The notes under the pieces were generated by a model. That model saw nothing but the letters and a program-made list of their open reading frames with translations. It made no database searches and had not been told where the DNA came from. A stretch of DNA of 64,000 bases from an uncultured delta proteobacterium (GTDB lineage Bacteria > Desulfobacterota > Binatia > UBA9968). Below are positions 1 through 6,919 of this stretch, one piece after another; position 1 is the stretch's first letter, and every line of letters starts with the position of its first letter. A program made the position numbers and the translations under genes. The stretch spans positions 128,001-192,000 of the forward strand of contig CAVSHR010000011.1 of assembly GCA_963727625.1 (NCBI GenBank), in the 5' to 3' direction.

Positions 1-152
1 CCGACCCCTATGAAAACTGTTACCCAATGATTCCAGCAGGCGGGGCGCAGCATGAAATGATGCTGGAGGACCCGCCTGAGCTCAAGCTGGCAAAAAAAGG
101 CGGCGCACACAAAAGAAAGGTGGATGAGGGCGAGGGGGTTCTTCCTGCCTGA
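1..152 (+). CDS. ilvB: Acetolactate synthase large subunit, C-terminal fragment (truncated by window)
   Basis: Manual translation DPYENCYPMIPAGGAQHEMML...EGVLPA* matches the ENxYPMIPxG C-terminal motif of IlvB; directly upstream of ilvN. Confidence 0.85.
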   Translation, partial: DPYENCYPMIPAGGAQHEMMLEDPPELKLAKKGGAHKRKVDEGEGVLPA

Positions 153-164
153 TAACCGTTTCGG

Positions 165-686
165 ATGGAACATATCATATCGGTTCTTGTTGAGAACAAG
201 TTCGGCGTTCTAGCCAGAGTTGCCGGGCTGTTCAGTGCGCGGGGCTATAACATCGAGAGCCTGTCGGTGGCTCCGACTTTGGACCCGACGGCTTCGATGA
301 TTACGATCGTCACCGCCGGCGATGATCGGATTATCGAGCAGATCATGAAGCAGCTCAACAAAGTGGTCGAGGTGCTCAAAGTCGTCGATTTAACGGAAAC
401 CCATTTCCTAGACCGGGAAACCGCACTGATCAAAGTTAACACCAAGCCCGAGCATCGTGACGAGGCGATCCGGTTAGCGGATATTTTCCGTGCCAAGATC
501 GTCGATTCCTCGCCGCACACCTACACAATTGAAATCACCGGCGACGTTGAAAAGGTCGAAGCGATGATCAACATGCTTCAACCTCTGGGCATCAAAGAGT
601 TGGTTCGCACCGGTCGGATAGCGATTTCTCGGGAAACAACCCACACGGCATCGCCACGACGGGAACCGGCGCTGCTAAAATCCTAA
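165..686 (+). CDS. ilvN: Acetolactate synthase small regulatory subunit
   Basis: ACT domain start HIISVLVENKFGVLARVAGLFSARGYNIESL; ELVRTG C-terminal motif. Confidence 0.95.
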   Translation: MEHIISVLVENKFGVLARVAGLFSARGYNIESLSVAPTLDPTASMITIVTAGDDRIIEQIMKQLNKVVEVLKVVDLTETHFLDRETALIKVNTKPEHRDEAIRLADIFRAKIVDSSPHTYTIEITGDVEKVEAMINMLQPLGIKELVRTGRIAISRETTHTASPRREPALLKS

Positions 687-805
687 GTCAGTCAACGATC
701 GAATTTGCGGCGAGCTGCAAGCGGTGAATTGGCATCGCTATAGCGCGACGCAGGGTTGGGGCAGTTAAGCGAAATCGGCTGCGGCGGAACAGATTATCTG
801 TCCGG

Positions 806-856
806 CTTCGGCGCCCAGCCGGACGCGAAAACATTTCATCTGGCTGGGCGCCGAAG
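806..856. terminator. Long inverted repeat between convergent genes
   Basis: CTTCGGCGCCCAGCCGGA / TCTGGCTGGGCGCCGAAG, 18-bp stem with one G-T pair, between ilvN (+) and the lipoprotein gene (-); no clear U tract. Confidence 0.55.
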
Positions 857-877
857 AATCACTCCTGTCACCACAAC

Positions 878-1150
878 TTATTTTTTGCTCTCCTTCATCG
901 TGTCGACAGCGTCTTTGCTGCTTTCTTTTATTTTTTCTATCGCTTCGGATGCGCCCTCTTTGGCTTCCTCGCCGGCCTTTTCCATGGCTTCACCCGTCTT
1001 TTCAGTGGCTTGGTCAACGGCTTTGCCCATGGTGGCGCCGGCTTTTTCGGCGGAACCCTCCGATTTGTTTTCCGACTTGCCGCACGCTCCTGCCGCGAGC
1101 AGAAATCCTGTGACGACCGCGGCCCAGAACAGTTTTGTACTGTGTTTCAT
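878..1150 (-). CDS. Small Ala/Glu/Lys-rich lipoprotein with 11-mer repeats
   Basis: Signal peptide with lipobox LAAGA-C; five 11-residue amphipathic repeats. Confidence 0.75.
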   Translation of the reverse strand: MKHSTKLFWAAVVTGFLLAAGACGKSENKSEGSAEKAGATMGKAVDQATEKTGEAMEKAGEEAKEGASEAIEKIKESSKDAVDTMKESKK

Positions 1151-1240
1151 AATAATATGATAATCTCCTTACAGGGTGCTCAATTCTTCTCAAGCCTAGC
1201 AAATTTCGTTAATCACTTGAATTCGATGAATGCTTTAATC

Positions 1241-1482
1241 AGCCCGGATTTCCGCAGTTGAACTTGAGCGAGGGATGAACCTAGAGTAGCGAAGACACTC
1301 AGGTGTGCCGTTTCAAAGGCCTTTCTGCCACTTGGCTCAACGGCCCCATAATTCTGACAAAATAAAGACAGCAGCGAGACCTGTCCTGGGCTCAGAGGTA
1401 TAAAAGCATTGTCTTCGCCGCGGACGGTTTGCCCCTCGCCCCACGCTCATCGCGGAACATTCCTAACTGCGGAATCCGGGTT
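1241..1482 (+). ncRNA. Candidate structured RNA of unknown class (nested multi-helix)
   Basis: Nested helices 1241-1260/1464-1482, 1268-1281/1426-1439, 1289-1297/1410-1418, 1298-1303/1385-1390, 1307-1312/1339-1344; G-U wobbles favour the + strand. Confidence 0.55.
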
Positions 1483-1589
1483 CAGCTGACGGCACTGAGG
1501 CAGCCATATTCACCGAGTTGAATGGTATAAGTCTTTGTCTTACGGCTACTTGTCGTTGACTTACCGTCGGTCAACCGGCATATTAGTAG

Positions 1590-2630
<1,041 letters not shown>

Positions 2631-2679
2631 GACGAAAGTCGTTGCGCTCGATAAGATCGATCAACTTGGGCGTCATGGG

Positions 2680-3306
2680 ATGAGAATCGCAAGGGAGGGT
2701 TATCCGCTCATTCTTGCCGCCGTGGCGTTGACTGTGATTTCGTTTGCGCTGGGTTGGAAGTTTGCCGCGGCCATTTTAGGATTGTTGGCGCTTGGGATCG
2801 CGGGTTTCTTTCGCGATCCGGATCGCCAAATTCCGTGCGGTGAAGATCTGGTTGTGTCACCGGCTGATGGGCGAGTCGTGAGCATAGCGGAAATCAAAGA
2901 TGCTGCATTCGCGGGTGCGGCTACTCGATTGAGTATTTTTCTCTCGCCTCTCGACGTGCACATAAACCGGGCGCCGGTGGGGGGCAAGATCGGCGACGTT
3001 AGGTATCAGCCGGGAAAGTTTCTCGCGGCGTACAAAGAAGAGGCATCGCAGCGCAACGAGCAAAACATGCTTAAAATCATCGATCAGCGCGGGCGGCTTT
3101 TCGGCGTAGTGCAGATTGCCGGTTTCTTGGCGCGGCGCATTGTCTGTCGGGCGAAGCGCGGCGATACGCTGGCGCGCGGCGACCGCTTCGGTCTGATCAT
3201 GTTTGGCTCCCGGACGGATCTCTATCTGCCGAGCGGCTGCCGGCTCGAAGTCGCCGAGGGGCAGAGGGTCAAGGGCGGCGCGACGATCCTTGGGAGGTTT
3301 GTATGA
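2680..3306 (+). CDS. psd: Phosphatidylserine decarboxylase proenzyme
   Basis: FFRDPDR, SPADG, DVHINRAP and FGSR self-cleavage motifs. Confidence 0.93.
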   Translation: MRIAREGYPLILAAVALTVISFALGWKFAAAILGLLALGIAGFFRDPDRQIPCGEDLVVSPADGRVVSIAEIKDAAFAGAATRLSIFLSPLDVHINRAPVGGKIGDVRYQPGKFLAAYKEEASQRNEQNMLKIIDQRGRLFGVVQIAGFLARRIVCRAKRGDTLARGDRFGLIMFGSRTDLYLPSGCRLEVAEGQRVKGGATILGRFV

Positions 3307-4160
3307 GCGCTATGAATTCTCAAGAACCCAACCAGTTTGGGGAAAATGGCAAAGTACGGCTGCTGCGCCGGCGCTCCCGGCAACGCGTGTCGCTGCGCCA
3401 TCCCATGCCCGCGGATAAGCTCAGGCGCGGGGTTTATCTTATTCCCAGCTTGTTTACCGCCGGCAACCTCATGTGCGGCTTTTTCTCCATCATCGCCACC
3501 TTTCGCGGCGATTATGTCAATGCAGCGTTGCTTATTCTCCTGGCGAATGTCTTTGACGGGGTCGACGGTTATGCGGCACGTCTGACACGGACCACAAGCC
3601 AGTTTGGCGTTGAGTTCGATTCCTTGGCGGATGTGGTTTCCTTCGGCGTCGCGCCCGCCGTGCTGGTTTATCTCTGGGCGCTTGTGCCATGGGAGACCTG
3701 GGGCTGGTTGGCGGCATGCACTTACGTCGTCTGCGGTGCGCTGCGCTTGTCCCGATTCAACGTTCAGGCGTTAGCGGGCTCCAAGGGCCATTTTGTCGGT
3801 TTGCCGATCCCGGCGGCAGCGCAAATGATTACCTCGACCGTGATTCTATATTATTATTTGGGTGGCGCCGGGTCGCCGAATCGACATGTGACGCTGCTGC
3901 TGGTGATCTACGGCTTGGCGACTCTGATGGTGAGCAATATCCCTTACTTCAGCCTCAAAAATACCGACGTTAAGAGGCGCCACCCAATCTGGATGTTGGT
4001 TTCTGGCTTTATTTTGATTACACTGATCGTTGCCGAACGGCAGATAATGTTTTTTATGTTGGTCTTACTCTACACGTTATCCGGGCCTTGGTTATGGTGC
4101 TTGGCGTCCTACAAACACCGGCGGGAGAAGCAAAGGAGCGCGGCCAAAACAATGCCGTGA
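3303..4160 (+). CDS. pssA: CDP-diacylglycerol--serine O-phosphatidyltransferase
   Basis: CDP-alcohol phosphotransferase motif DGVDGYAAR...FGVEFDSLADVVSFG; follows psd. Confidence 0.93.
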   Translation: MSAMNSQEPNQFGENGKVRLLRRRSRQRVSLRHPMPADKLRRGVYLIPSLFTAGNLMCGFFSIIATFRGDYVNAALLILLANVFDGVDGYAARLTRTTSQFGVEFDSLADVVSFGVAPAVLVYLWALVPWETWGWLAACTYVVCGALRLSRFNVQALAGSKGHFVGLPIPAAAQMITSTVILYYYLGGAGSPNRHVTLLLVIYGLATLMVSNIPYFSLKNTDVKRRHPIWMLVSGFILITLIVAERQIMFFMLVLLYTLSGPWLWCLASYKHRREKQRSAAKTMP

Positions 4161-4190
4161 GCTTCTGGCTCAACTAGCGAATAGGTAGAT

Positions 4191-4226
4191 ACTCCCGTTG
4201 GCTTCGCCGCGGGAGTTTTTATTTCT
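4191..4226 (+). terminator. Intrinsic terminator-like hairpin just upstream of leuA
   Basis: ACTCCCG..GGC-TTC-GCC..CGGGAGT followed by TTTTATTTCT. Confidence 0.7.
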
Positions 4227-4265
4227 GGGGCAGGCCGACGGCTCAACGATGAAGGAGAATTGACA

Positions 4266-5831
4266 ATGGACAAGGTGGCCGAAAATAACGTAGTACAAAT
4301 ATTCGATACCACACTGCGCGACGGCGAGCAGTCGCCCGGTGCCAGCATGACCGCCGAGCAAAAAGTCGTCATTGCCCGGCAATTGGAAAAACTCGGCGTT
4401 GACGTCATCGAAGCCGGCTTTGCGGCGTCGTCGGAAGGCGATTTCGATTCGGTGCGGCGGGTTTGCAGGGAAGTTGTCCGGCCGCGGGTGGTGAGCCTGG
4501 CGCGCGCTCAGGAGAGCGATATCGAGCGGGCCTTGAAAGCGGTCGACGGAGCAAAAAATCCGGGTATTCATACCTTTATCGCGACTTCGGATATTCACTT
4601 GCAGCATAAGCTGCGCATGACCCGCGAGCAGGTCGTCGAAGCTGCGGTCAAGGCGGTCCATCACGCTAAAAAATTCATCGATTATATCGAATTTTCCGCC
4701 GAAGATGCCTCGCGCAGCGATCCGGAATTTTTGATTCGGCTGTTCCGCGAGGTGATTCGCGCCGGCGCCAAGGTGATCAATGTTCCGGATACGACCGGCT
4801 ACGCGATTCCGTCGGAATTCGGCGCGTTGATCGCCAACTTGATCGAGCGTACCGCGGGCGGTGACCGGGTGATCTGGAGCGCCCATTGCCATAACGACTT
4901 GGGACTGGCGGTCGCAAATTCTCTCACCGCAGTACATAACGGCGCGCGTCAGATCGAGTGCACGATCAACGGTATCGGCGAGCGCGCCGGCAACACTTCC
5001 CTCGAAGAGGTGGTCATGGCGCTGCGCACGCGCAAAAACTATCTCGATCTCGACACCAATATCACAAGCGAGCAGCTCTATCCGACGTCCCGTCTGGTTT
5101 CGCAGGTGACCGGCATTCCGATTCCGATCAACAAACCGATCGTTGGCGACAACGCGTTCGCTCATGAGGCCGGTATCCATCAGGACGGCGTGCTCAAGCA
5201 CAAGCAGACCTACGAGATCATGACGCCGGAGTCGATCGGCATTCCGGGAAACCGGCTGGTCATGGGCAAGCACTCCGGGCGCCACGCCTTCGACGAGCGG
5301 CTTAAACACCTGGGGTTCAACTTAAGCAAAGAAGACATGAACCGCGCGTTTTTGCGCTTCAAAGAACTCGCGGACAAGAAAAAGAATGTGTACGACGAAG
5401 ACATTGAAGCGATCGTCGCCGAAGAAATACTGCGCGTGCCCGGCCGGCCGGATAAGTTCGAGCTGCTTTATATGAACGTGAATTCAAGCTCCGACGGCAT
5501 TCCGGCGGCAACGGTCAAAATGCGCGTGGATGGTGAGGAGATTACGGACCACGCTTCCGGCGACGGCGCGGTGGATGCCTGCTACCAGGTGATCACGAAG
5601 ATTACCCGCTCGCAGTCGCAGCTGGTGCGCTATTCGGTCAACGCCATCACCGGCGGCACGGACGCCCAGGGCGAAGTTTCGTGCATAATCGAAGACGACG
5701 GCATTCGCGTTTCGGGACAGGGGGCACACACCGATGTGATCATGGCGAGCGCCTTGGCGTATATTAACGCTCTCAACAAACTGGAAGGAAGAAAACACTA
5801 TCGGCAGGTGGTGGAAAAAGAGGGACCATGA
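4266..5831 (+). CDS. leuA: 2-isopropylmalate synthase
   Basis: [30 protein letters not shown]; C-terminal regulatory domain; GAAGGAG RBS favours ATG 4266. Confidence 0.97.
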
Positions 5832-6919
5832 ACTACAAAATCGCAGTGTTGCCAGGAGACGGCATCGGCCCTGAAGTCATGCACGAGGGTCTCGAAGTTC
5901 TCGGACAGGTCGCCAAGCTTTACGGCTTCGGCGTCGAGACCGAGCAGGGCATTGTCGGCGGCGCGTCCATCGACGCGCACGGCAAGCCGTTGACGGATGC
6001 GGTGCTGAAGCTCGCCAAGGAAAGCGACGCGGTGTTGCTCGGAGCCATGGGCGGACCCAAATGGGACGGTCTCGATTATTCGGTCCGACCGGAGCGCGCG
6101 CTTTTGGCGCTGCGCCAAGAGCTTGGCTTGTTCGCCAATCTTCGTCCGGTGAAATTATTCTCCGCCTTGGCTTCGGCATCGACGCTTAAGCGCGAAGTGG
6201 TCGAGGGAACCGATCTTCTGGTCGTGCGCGAGCTCACCGGTGGGATCTATTTCGGCCAACCCAAAGGCGTAACCGAGCTGCCCGACGGAACCGAGCGCGG
6301 CGTAAACACCGAGGTTTACACAACGCCGGAAATCGAGCGCATCGCCCACGTGGCGTTCCAGGCGGCGCTCAAGCGGCGCAAAAAGGTCACATCGGTGGAT
6401 AAGGCCAACGTGCTCGAAGTCACCGAGCTGTGGCGCAAGGTTGTCACCAAGATTCACAAAGACGAAGGCTACGCCGGAATTCAACTGGACCATATGCTGG
6501 TCGATAACTGCGCCATGCAGCTGATTCGCAACCCGAAGCAATTTGACGTGGTCGTAACGACGAATATGTTCGGCGATATCTTAAGCGACGAAGCGGCGAT
6601 GCTGACCGGATCCATCGGCATGCTGCCGTCGGCTAGTCTGGGCGGCAAGGTCGGCATGTACGAGCCGGTGCACGGCAGCGCGCCGGATATTGCGGGTCAG
6701 GACAAGGCAAATCCACTGGCGACTATTCTAAGCGTTGCCATGATGCTGCGCCACTCCTTTAACCAGGGAGCCGCCGCGGATCGCATCGAAAAAGCGGTCG
6801 AAGCCGTGTTGGACCAAGGTTACCGCACCGCGGATGTTCAAGAAGCAGGTTGCAAGCTCGTTGGTTGCAAGCAAATGGGCCGGTCGGTCCGCGATCAGAT
6901 CGAAAAGGCGAAGGGATAA
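5828..6919 (+). CDS. leuB: 3-isopropylmalate dehydrogenase
   Basis: [32 protein letters not shown]. Confidence 0.97.

Follow-up and report, generated by a model that had tools for sequence, protein, structure and literature searches.

IS-derived MITEs known from bacteria include the Correia/NEMIS elements of Neisseria, ERIC, RUP and Nezha. Insertion sequences of the IS1380 family are about 1.5-2 kb long, carry a single ORF between ends that begin with CC, and generate a 4-5-bp target duplication (ISfinder). Two members of this family, ISEcp1 and ISPme1, are reported to mobilise adjacent DNA by means of look-alike alternative right ends (PMC9330008). The TIMEs are non-autonomous inverted-repeat miniature elements derived from Tn3 that insert into AT-rich DNA and are flanked by 5- or 6-bp duplications (PMC4133298).

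Here we analysed an element located upstream of ilvC in the window (the whole stretch of DNA under analysis, 64,000 nucleotides). Positions 1243-1480 very probably hold a non-autonomous MITE with the ends of an IS1380-type insertion sequence. As a type, such a MITE is ordinary; the family to which it belongs seems to be undescribed. No description of the family was found in a search of the literature on IS1380 MITEs and on Binatia insertion sequences; ISfinder could hold a related entry. Like the IS-derived MITEs, the window element is shorter than 300 bp, non-coding and multi-copy; it has inverted repeats that match those of an IS, a target duplication and a hairpin involving its whole length, and it lies mostly near gene ends. 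Unlike them, the window family combines IS1380-family ends with a 5-bp TTNAA-like duplication and a core foreign to the parent IS, and its hosts are uncultured (MAGs mostly labelled Candidatus Binatia). Compared to the IS1380 family itself (ISEcp1, ISPme1), the MITE bears the ends of a partner IS whose transposase exceeds the NCBIfam IS1380 cutoff, but it has no transposase of its own. It resembles the TIMEs in being non-autonomous and in having AT-rich targets and a 5-bp duplication, but its ends match an IS1380-family IS, whereas those of the TIMEs are of the Tn3 family. Resemblance to piggyBac lies in a partner transposase of a related superfamily and in an AT-rich, TTAA-like target; however, piggyBac duplicates 4 bp (TTAA), while the window family duplicates 5 bp (TTNAA-like) and has prokaryotic hosts.

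The MITE is 238 bp long (window 1243-1480, CCCGG...CCGGG). Its terminal inverted repeats are 17 nt long, with the family consensus CCCGGATTCCGCAGTTG, and are 97% paired over 64 copies. There is no ORF of at least 40 aa within 1243-1480, and no transposase gene adjoins the element. The marks by which a MITE is recognised at the level of sequence were all found, namely the size, the missing transposase gene, the inverted repeats, a duplication of fixed length, dispersed copies, ends shared with an IS and, for the second copy, an empty site. The parts of the window copy are the following:

1238..1242, no strand: left copy of the target-site duplication, ATCAG, sharing 4 of 5 positions with the right copy TTCAG
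1243..1480, + strand: MITE, where + is the 'forward' orientation of the family, set by the asymmetric core
1243..1260, + strand: left terminal inverted repeat, with a 1-nt insertion (an extra T) relative to the consensus CCCGGATTCCGCAGTTG
1265..1282, + strand: left arm of helix 2, family-wide, whose partner is 1425-1436 plus 1444-1449 (alignment columns 38-55 with 236-260)
1283..1285, + strand: left half of a symmetric 3x3 purine internal loop, AGA here and GGA in most copies
1286..1297, + strand: left arm of helix 3, with the family register 1286-1294 paired with 1413-1421 (columns 59-68 with 224-232)
1410..1424, + strand: right arm of helix 3 plus the right half of the purine loop, from the alignment
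1422..1424, + strand: right half of the purine internal loop, GGA, from the 64-copy alignment
1425..1449, + strand: right arm of helix 2, broken by a 7-nt insertion at 1437-1443
1464..1480, - strand: right terminal inverted repeat, with one mismatch relative to the consensus
1481..1485, no strand: right copy of the target-site duplication, TTCAG, which includes T1481

The alignment and the later comparisons took the window copy as 1243-1481, which is one base longer than the element (T1481 belongs to the duplication). Helix 3 extends in the window copy to 1297, paired with 1410. The 7-nt insertion at 1437-1443 is private to the window copy and is absent from the other 63 aligned copies.

A BLAST search for further copies in the window's own genome (G000, 6.6 Mb in 15 contigs), one of the checks proposed in the first-pass annotation of this DNA, revealed a second copy, 93% identical, at about G000:C9:15089-15319, and the limits of the match coincided with the outer helix. 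A search with the CCCGGATTCCGCAGTTG motif found two further inverted pairs of 199 bp (C5:246234-246432 and C4:1124-1322) with cores unrelated to that of the window MITE. All four elements of this genome are flanked by 5-bp direct repeats, three of them perfect (TTTAA/TTTAA, CTGAA/CTGAA and ATTAT/ATTAT), while the window copy retains 4 of 5 positions (ATCAG/TTCAG). The 1-nt insertion in the left repeat, the mismatch in the duplication and an assembly without the cognate transposase suggest that the window copy is a stranded fossil.

The site of the second copy was found uninterrupted in a relative (G006, contig C387). The empty site reads …GGTTTTTT-CT-ACGAAGCG… and its flanks align up to the insertion point, the corresponding locus in the window's genome being …GGTTTTTTAA[229-bp element]TTTAACGAAGCG…. 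In G006 the empty site lies within an intact 213-aa ORF (DUF6655, 2.1e-06), approximately 39 codons before its end. As this ORF is intact across the site, the second copy truncates the gene, removing approximately 39 codons. Together with its duplications, the second copy occupies G000:C9:15084-15322 (positions 1496-1734 of locus L002), in the 3' part of a gene that in G006 has a lipoprotein-like N-terminus.

The same relative harbours the partner IS. Two end motifs lie 1546 bp apart in G006 (positions 254-1799 of locus L032), with the ends CCCGGATTCCGCAGTAG and CCCGGAATCCGCAGTGG and the duplication TTAAG/TTAAG. The sequence between them holds a single 483-aa ORF (L032 276-1727, minus strand), which scored 234.1 bits against the NCBIfam model NF033539 (IS1380 family transposase, cutoff 180) and matched Pfam PF13701 at 1.4e-39 (136 bits, cutoff 34.7). 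This IS was present in 5 of the 30 same-genus genomes (79-84% amino acid identity), always with the same ends. Its length of 1546-1548 bp, its one ORF, its CCCGG ends and its 5-bp duplication fit the format of the IS1380 family. The duplications of the five copies were TTAAG/TTAAG, TTGAA/TTGAA, TGGAA/TTGAA and ATAAA/TTGAA, the fifth copy being placed at a contig end. Past approximately the first 25-60 bp, the core of the MITE and the interior of the IS had no detectable similarity, and the shared part amounts to approximately 17-25 nt of each end.

When the window's own genome was searched for the cognate transposase, the best match was only 24% identical, and the distant IS1380-like genes found there (24-28%) had no end motif nearby. 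As the window's genome is without a cognate transposase, we infer mobilisation in this genome from its relatives. The IS was also absent from the MITE-rich assemblies G009, G016, G012 and G029, which are fragmented MAGs, in which repeats are often unassembled. The transposase of the IS would bind the common ends and move the MITE in trans into AT-rich TTNAA-like sites. By analogy with ISEcp1 and ISPme1, a MITE with a foreign core could plausibly have arisen through the use of look-alike ends. The MITE family is tied to an IS1380-type partner, with its ends, its 5-bp TTNAA-like target and an empty site defined, and it provides a substrate for the study of end recognition by IS1380-type (piggyBac-related) transposases.

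Next to the window's own genome, we analysed the spread of the family. Of 60 relatives searched by BLAST, 11 had matches to the element. The same genus accounted for 10 of them (30 genomes searched) and other genera of the family for 1 (6 genomes), and the 24 genomes representing other families of the order had none. The end motif, allowing up to 2 mismatches, far outnumbered a reversed-motif control in the same-genus genomes G009 (65 vs. 1), G029 (29 vs. 1), G016 (22 vs. 0), G006 (19 vs. 0) and G012 (15 vs. 0), and its matches there were mostly arranged as inverted pairs approximately 225-241 bp apart. A scan of one genome per species (185,579 species), in which both ends had to be exact with 190-220 nt between them, gave 49 loci with ends 226-250 bp apart, nearly all in MAGs labelled Candidatus Binatia or, in older labels, delta proteobacterium. 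By label alone, a few exact-end copies also occurred in MAGs assigned to Aminicenantes, Udaeobacter and Chloroflexota (L067, L076 and L065/L101). The family can be masked in the genomes of this poorly known uncultured lineage.

Both 5-bp flanks were available at 48 of the 49 loci; they were identical in 30, shared 4 of 5 positions in 15, 3 of 5 in 2 and 2 of 5 in 1. Among 17 MITE-sized end pairs from the relatives and the window's own genome, the flanks were perfect in 13, 4/5 in 3 and 2/5 in 1. Three copies are common to both flank sets, and the 67 sequences correspond to 64 distinct copies. An unpublished genome (G005) supplies 2 of the 64 aligned copies and 2 of the 17 flank rows (L010 and L019); no conclusion rests on it. 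Most of the duplicated words, as judged by eye, are TTCAA, TTGAA, TTTAA, TTCAG or similar, a TTNAA-like preference, and their variable middle base recurs as itself (TTGAA/TTGAA, TTCAA/TTCAA) and is not complemented. As the middle base is repeated as such, the 5-bp flanks are direct duplications and no extension of the inverted repeat.

The alignment of the 64 distinct copies was used to analyse the conservation of the hairpin. RNAalifold retained the terminal repeats and two inner arm helices, with nothing conserved in the central 150 columns or so. The structure examined for covariation was named without column selection and consists of the ends, helix 2 (columns 38-55/236-260) and helix 3 (columns 59-68/224-232). 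In this structure 93.0% of 2712 cells pair, and 20 of the 43 pairs have changed on both sides (133 cells), which are the compensatory changes that the first-pass annotation had proposed to look for among homologs. Sliding the partner by 1-3 columns reduced pairing to 33-45%, with at most 31 double-changed cells. None of 500 shuffles reached the named structure in any of five measures, a significance that shuffle controls overstate, the copies being related. Both-side changes affected 13 of the 18 pairs of helix 2 and 5 of the 9 pairs of helix 3, in which 95% of the cells are paired. Columns 47/244 alone hold six pair types (AU 16, GU 14, UG 14, UA 8, GC 6 and CG 4). The slid control and this diversity of pairs within one pair of columns speak convincingly for the covariation. 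The 3x3 purine loop between helices 2 and 3 is GGA/GGA in 33 of the 64 copies and complementary (GGA/TCC) in 1, and the core contains two motifs, TTTCAAAGTC and (C/T)AGAGGCAG, whose conservation is limited to one orientation.

In conclusion, selection acts to keep the arms paired, and compensatory changes maintain the hairpin. The long hairpin arises from the two arm helices kept complementary in this way. Transposition competence, the stability of DNA or RNA, and an effect on the host are possibilities for what retains the pairing, and the maintained pairing bears on the question of what MITE hairpins are selected for.

In the window copy, the first-pass annotation had described five nested helices, and all of them were found (1241-1260/1464-1482, 1268-1281/1426-1439, 1289-1297/1410-1418, 1298-1303/1385-1390 and two inner hairpins). 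Only the outer three are family-wide (the terminal repeats and the two inner arm helices), while helix 4 and the inner hairpins are restricted to the subfamily of the window copy. An additional pairing, 1265-1270/1444-1449, had been seen as a competitor of helix 2. The pairing is present and represents the ancestral register; in the window copy it is the private 7-nt insertion at 1437-1443 that creates the competition.

The expectation that the fold would be better than that of shuffled sequence was borne out. The + strand of window 1235-1490 folds at -94.6 kcal/mol, compared to a mean of -76.0 (sd 5.0) for 200 dinucleotide-preserving shuffles (z -3.76), none of which equalled it. The - strand folds at -102.5 kcal/mol (z -3.52), again with 0 of 200 shuffles as good. 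The fold is non-random, yet it is a property of a DNA palindrome, and nothing favours the + strand in the window copy. The proposal that the G-U wobbles reflect RNA-level selection on the + strand thus fails for this copy, whose - strand folds better, and the evidence at the level of the family is mixed. The absence of a known RNA signature, also noted in the first reading, agrees with Rfam 15, in which nothing reached the gathering threshold. In window 1-6000, with E up to 10, there were 6 matches, and the only one that overlaps the element was snoZ163 (18.9 bits vs. a gathering threshold of 39). The scan of 20 loci with other copies gave MIR868 as its sole match (25.2 bits vs. 200).

The window copy lies at an ilv locus with these features:

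165..686, + strand: acetolactate synthase small subunit (ilvN/ilvH; PF10369 1.5e-31, PF22629 3.2e-23)
878..1150, - strand: 90-aa ORF between ilvN and ilvC, with no Pfam match, partly conserved in approximately 12 of 26 relatives' loci
1556..1584, + strand: sigma-70-like site TTGACT-17-CATATT, a consensus match only (2 sites vs. 0.9 expected)
1614..2630, + strand: ilvC, ketol-acid reductoisomerase (PF07991 1.4e-76, PF01450 3.4e-65)

The ilvC locus was obtained from 26 of the 30 same-genus genomes, and none of these 26 loci has a pair of element ends at ilvC. In 24 of them DNA similarity to the window sets in ahead of the ilvC ATG, at 1527-1550, and in the other 2 at the ATG itself. From the MITE end at 1480 the distance is 133 nt to the ATG and 75 nt to the promoter-like -35 box, the latter lying in the conserved block. 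As the MITE ends at 1480, it is located upstream of the likely ilvC promoter, between divergent genes, and not in a leader. Its insertion point is flanked by the divergent small ORF and the promoter region of ilvC, a position in which the copy is probably harmless.

The relatives yielded no empty allele of the window site; their spacers do not align, and their ilvC genes are at most approximately 80-82% identical. A metagenome scan with a 22-nt word from the left flank returned one contig, with no alignment beyond the word, which is a chance match. Among the contigs of four DNA runs, one of 203 nt (run X2) spans 1390-1592 with one difference and bridges the right junction, and none skips the element; cover was patchy, X2 may be the window's own source, and no weight is given to this result. 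Among the sequencing runs listed for the stretch, none was of RNA.

The first-pass annotation had left three readings side by side, of which the structured non-autonomous mobile element stands, while the undescribed ncRNA and the ilvC leader are not supported. It is highly improbable that the stretch is a structured ncRNA confined to a single locus, or that it regulates ilvC in cis as a leader, for instance as an attenuator or a riboswitch of branched-chain amino acid genes. It is on the same strand as ilvC, upstream of the gene, and folds far better than shuffles, but it is multi-copy and bounded by target duplications, it is missing upstream of ilvC in all 26 of the relatives' loci, and it stops 133 nt short of the ATG and 75 nt short of the -35 box. 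Moreover, its second copy lies inside an unrelated gene, its opposite strand folds equally well, and Rfam gave no match for the window copy. The stretch is dispersed, mostly intergenic and able to form a hairpin, as would also be expected of a palindromic repeat of the REP/BIME or another type that owes its spread to a Y1 (RAYT) transposase or to recombination and not to a DDE transposase. However, REPs have neither defined terminal inverted repeats nor a direct 5-bp duplication of the target, the ends and the duplication length are shared with an IS1380-family IS, and 238 bp is far longer than a REP unit (approximately 35 bp), which makes this origin barely credible.

The remaining alternative complements the MITE reading. 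It proposes a MITE with an added strand-specific structured function, either as an RNA module co-transcribed with its neighbours or as a single-stranded DNA hairpin in transposition, and we consider it unlikely, although clearly less so than the other two. It is favoured by the arm helices (93% paired, both-side changes in 20 of 43 pairs), by a purine loop that is complementary in just 1 of 64 copies, and by the core motifs TTTCAAAGTC and (C/T)AGAGGCAG, kept in a single orientation. Over all 27 columns of helices 2 and 3, unselected, G·U pairs outnumber A·C (132 vs. 59 cells), and the excess persists in 22 cluster consensuses at 20% distance (47 vs. 20; G·U is the more frequent in 14 clusters and A·C in 2). 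By contrast, tree parsimony showed a weak excess, G·U having been gained 51 times and A·C 34 times. Whole-element folding was better in the forward orientation for 35 of the 64 copies and in the reverse for 29 (mean difference -1.1 kcal/mol, sd 8.0; Wilcoxon p 0.28), and for the window copy the reverse fold is the better one (-99.3 vs. -92.0). Flanking genes read into the element in similar numbers in the forward and reverse orientations (19 and 21), as do those reading away (14 vs. 17), in crude gene calls within 300-nt flanks that left 28-29 of the 64 flanks per side uncalled. The lack of an Rfam match for the window copy and for the 20 loci with other copies also counts against a structured RNA. 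The G·U excess and the covariation of the arms are not obviously needed by a purely passive DNA parasite; even so, it is doubtful that IS1380-type MITEs carry a strand-specific structured module, whether RNA or a single-stranded DNA hairpin. On the MITE reading, the folded intergenic stretch beside a core biosynthetic gene is a copy of a mobile element and not a regulator, and its main relevance is to annotation.

Some further observations concern the locus and the genome. The ilvN-ilvC spacer (687-1613) is 927 bp long in the window and differs greatly in length between the 26 relatives' loci. It is shortest in G018, where approximately 200 bp separate the flanking conserved blocks, compared to approximately 840 bp in the window. 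The translation of the ORF at 878-1150 reads as having a signal-peptide-like start. A candidate promoter within the element (1325-1352, matching at 9 of 12 positions) was considered and rejected, being no more than expected by chance and showing no conservation in the alignment. Three copies of a 513-aa frame with identical search scores were found at G000:C2:440990-442339, C4:1645117-1646466 and C6:136244-137593. With 26% identity to the partner transposase, these frames are only remotely IS1380-like and represent another IS of the family with different ends.

A subfamily of the MITE (L070, L106, L110 and L112) carries a nested addition, an extra core insert of approximately 30 nt (…CTCCGCCACAGGCGGATCAGCCTTCGGCTGAG…; alignment columns 190-220) that forms two small hairpins. 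The 199-bp elements form a second MITE family, which shares the 17-nt ends and is flanked by perfect duplications of 5 bp (CTGAA and ATTAT). The two copies are identical at 141 positions of a 211-column alignment and fold with z values of -3.3 and -3.4 against mononucleotide shuffles. Their centre consists of back-to-back partial ends (…CAACTGCG|CCGCAGTTA…), and each folds as two hairpins, like joined half-elements.
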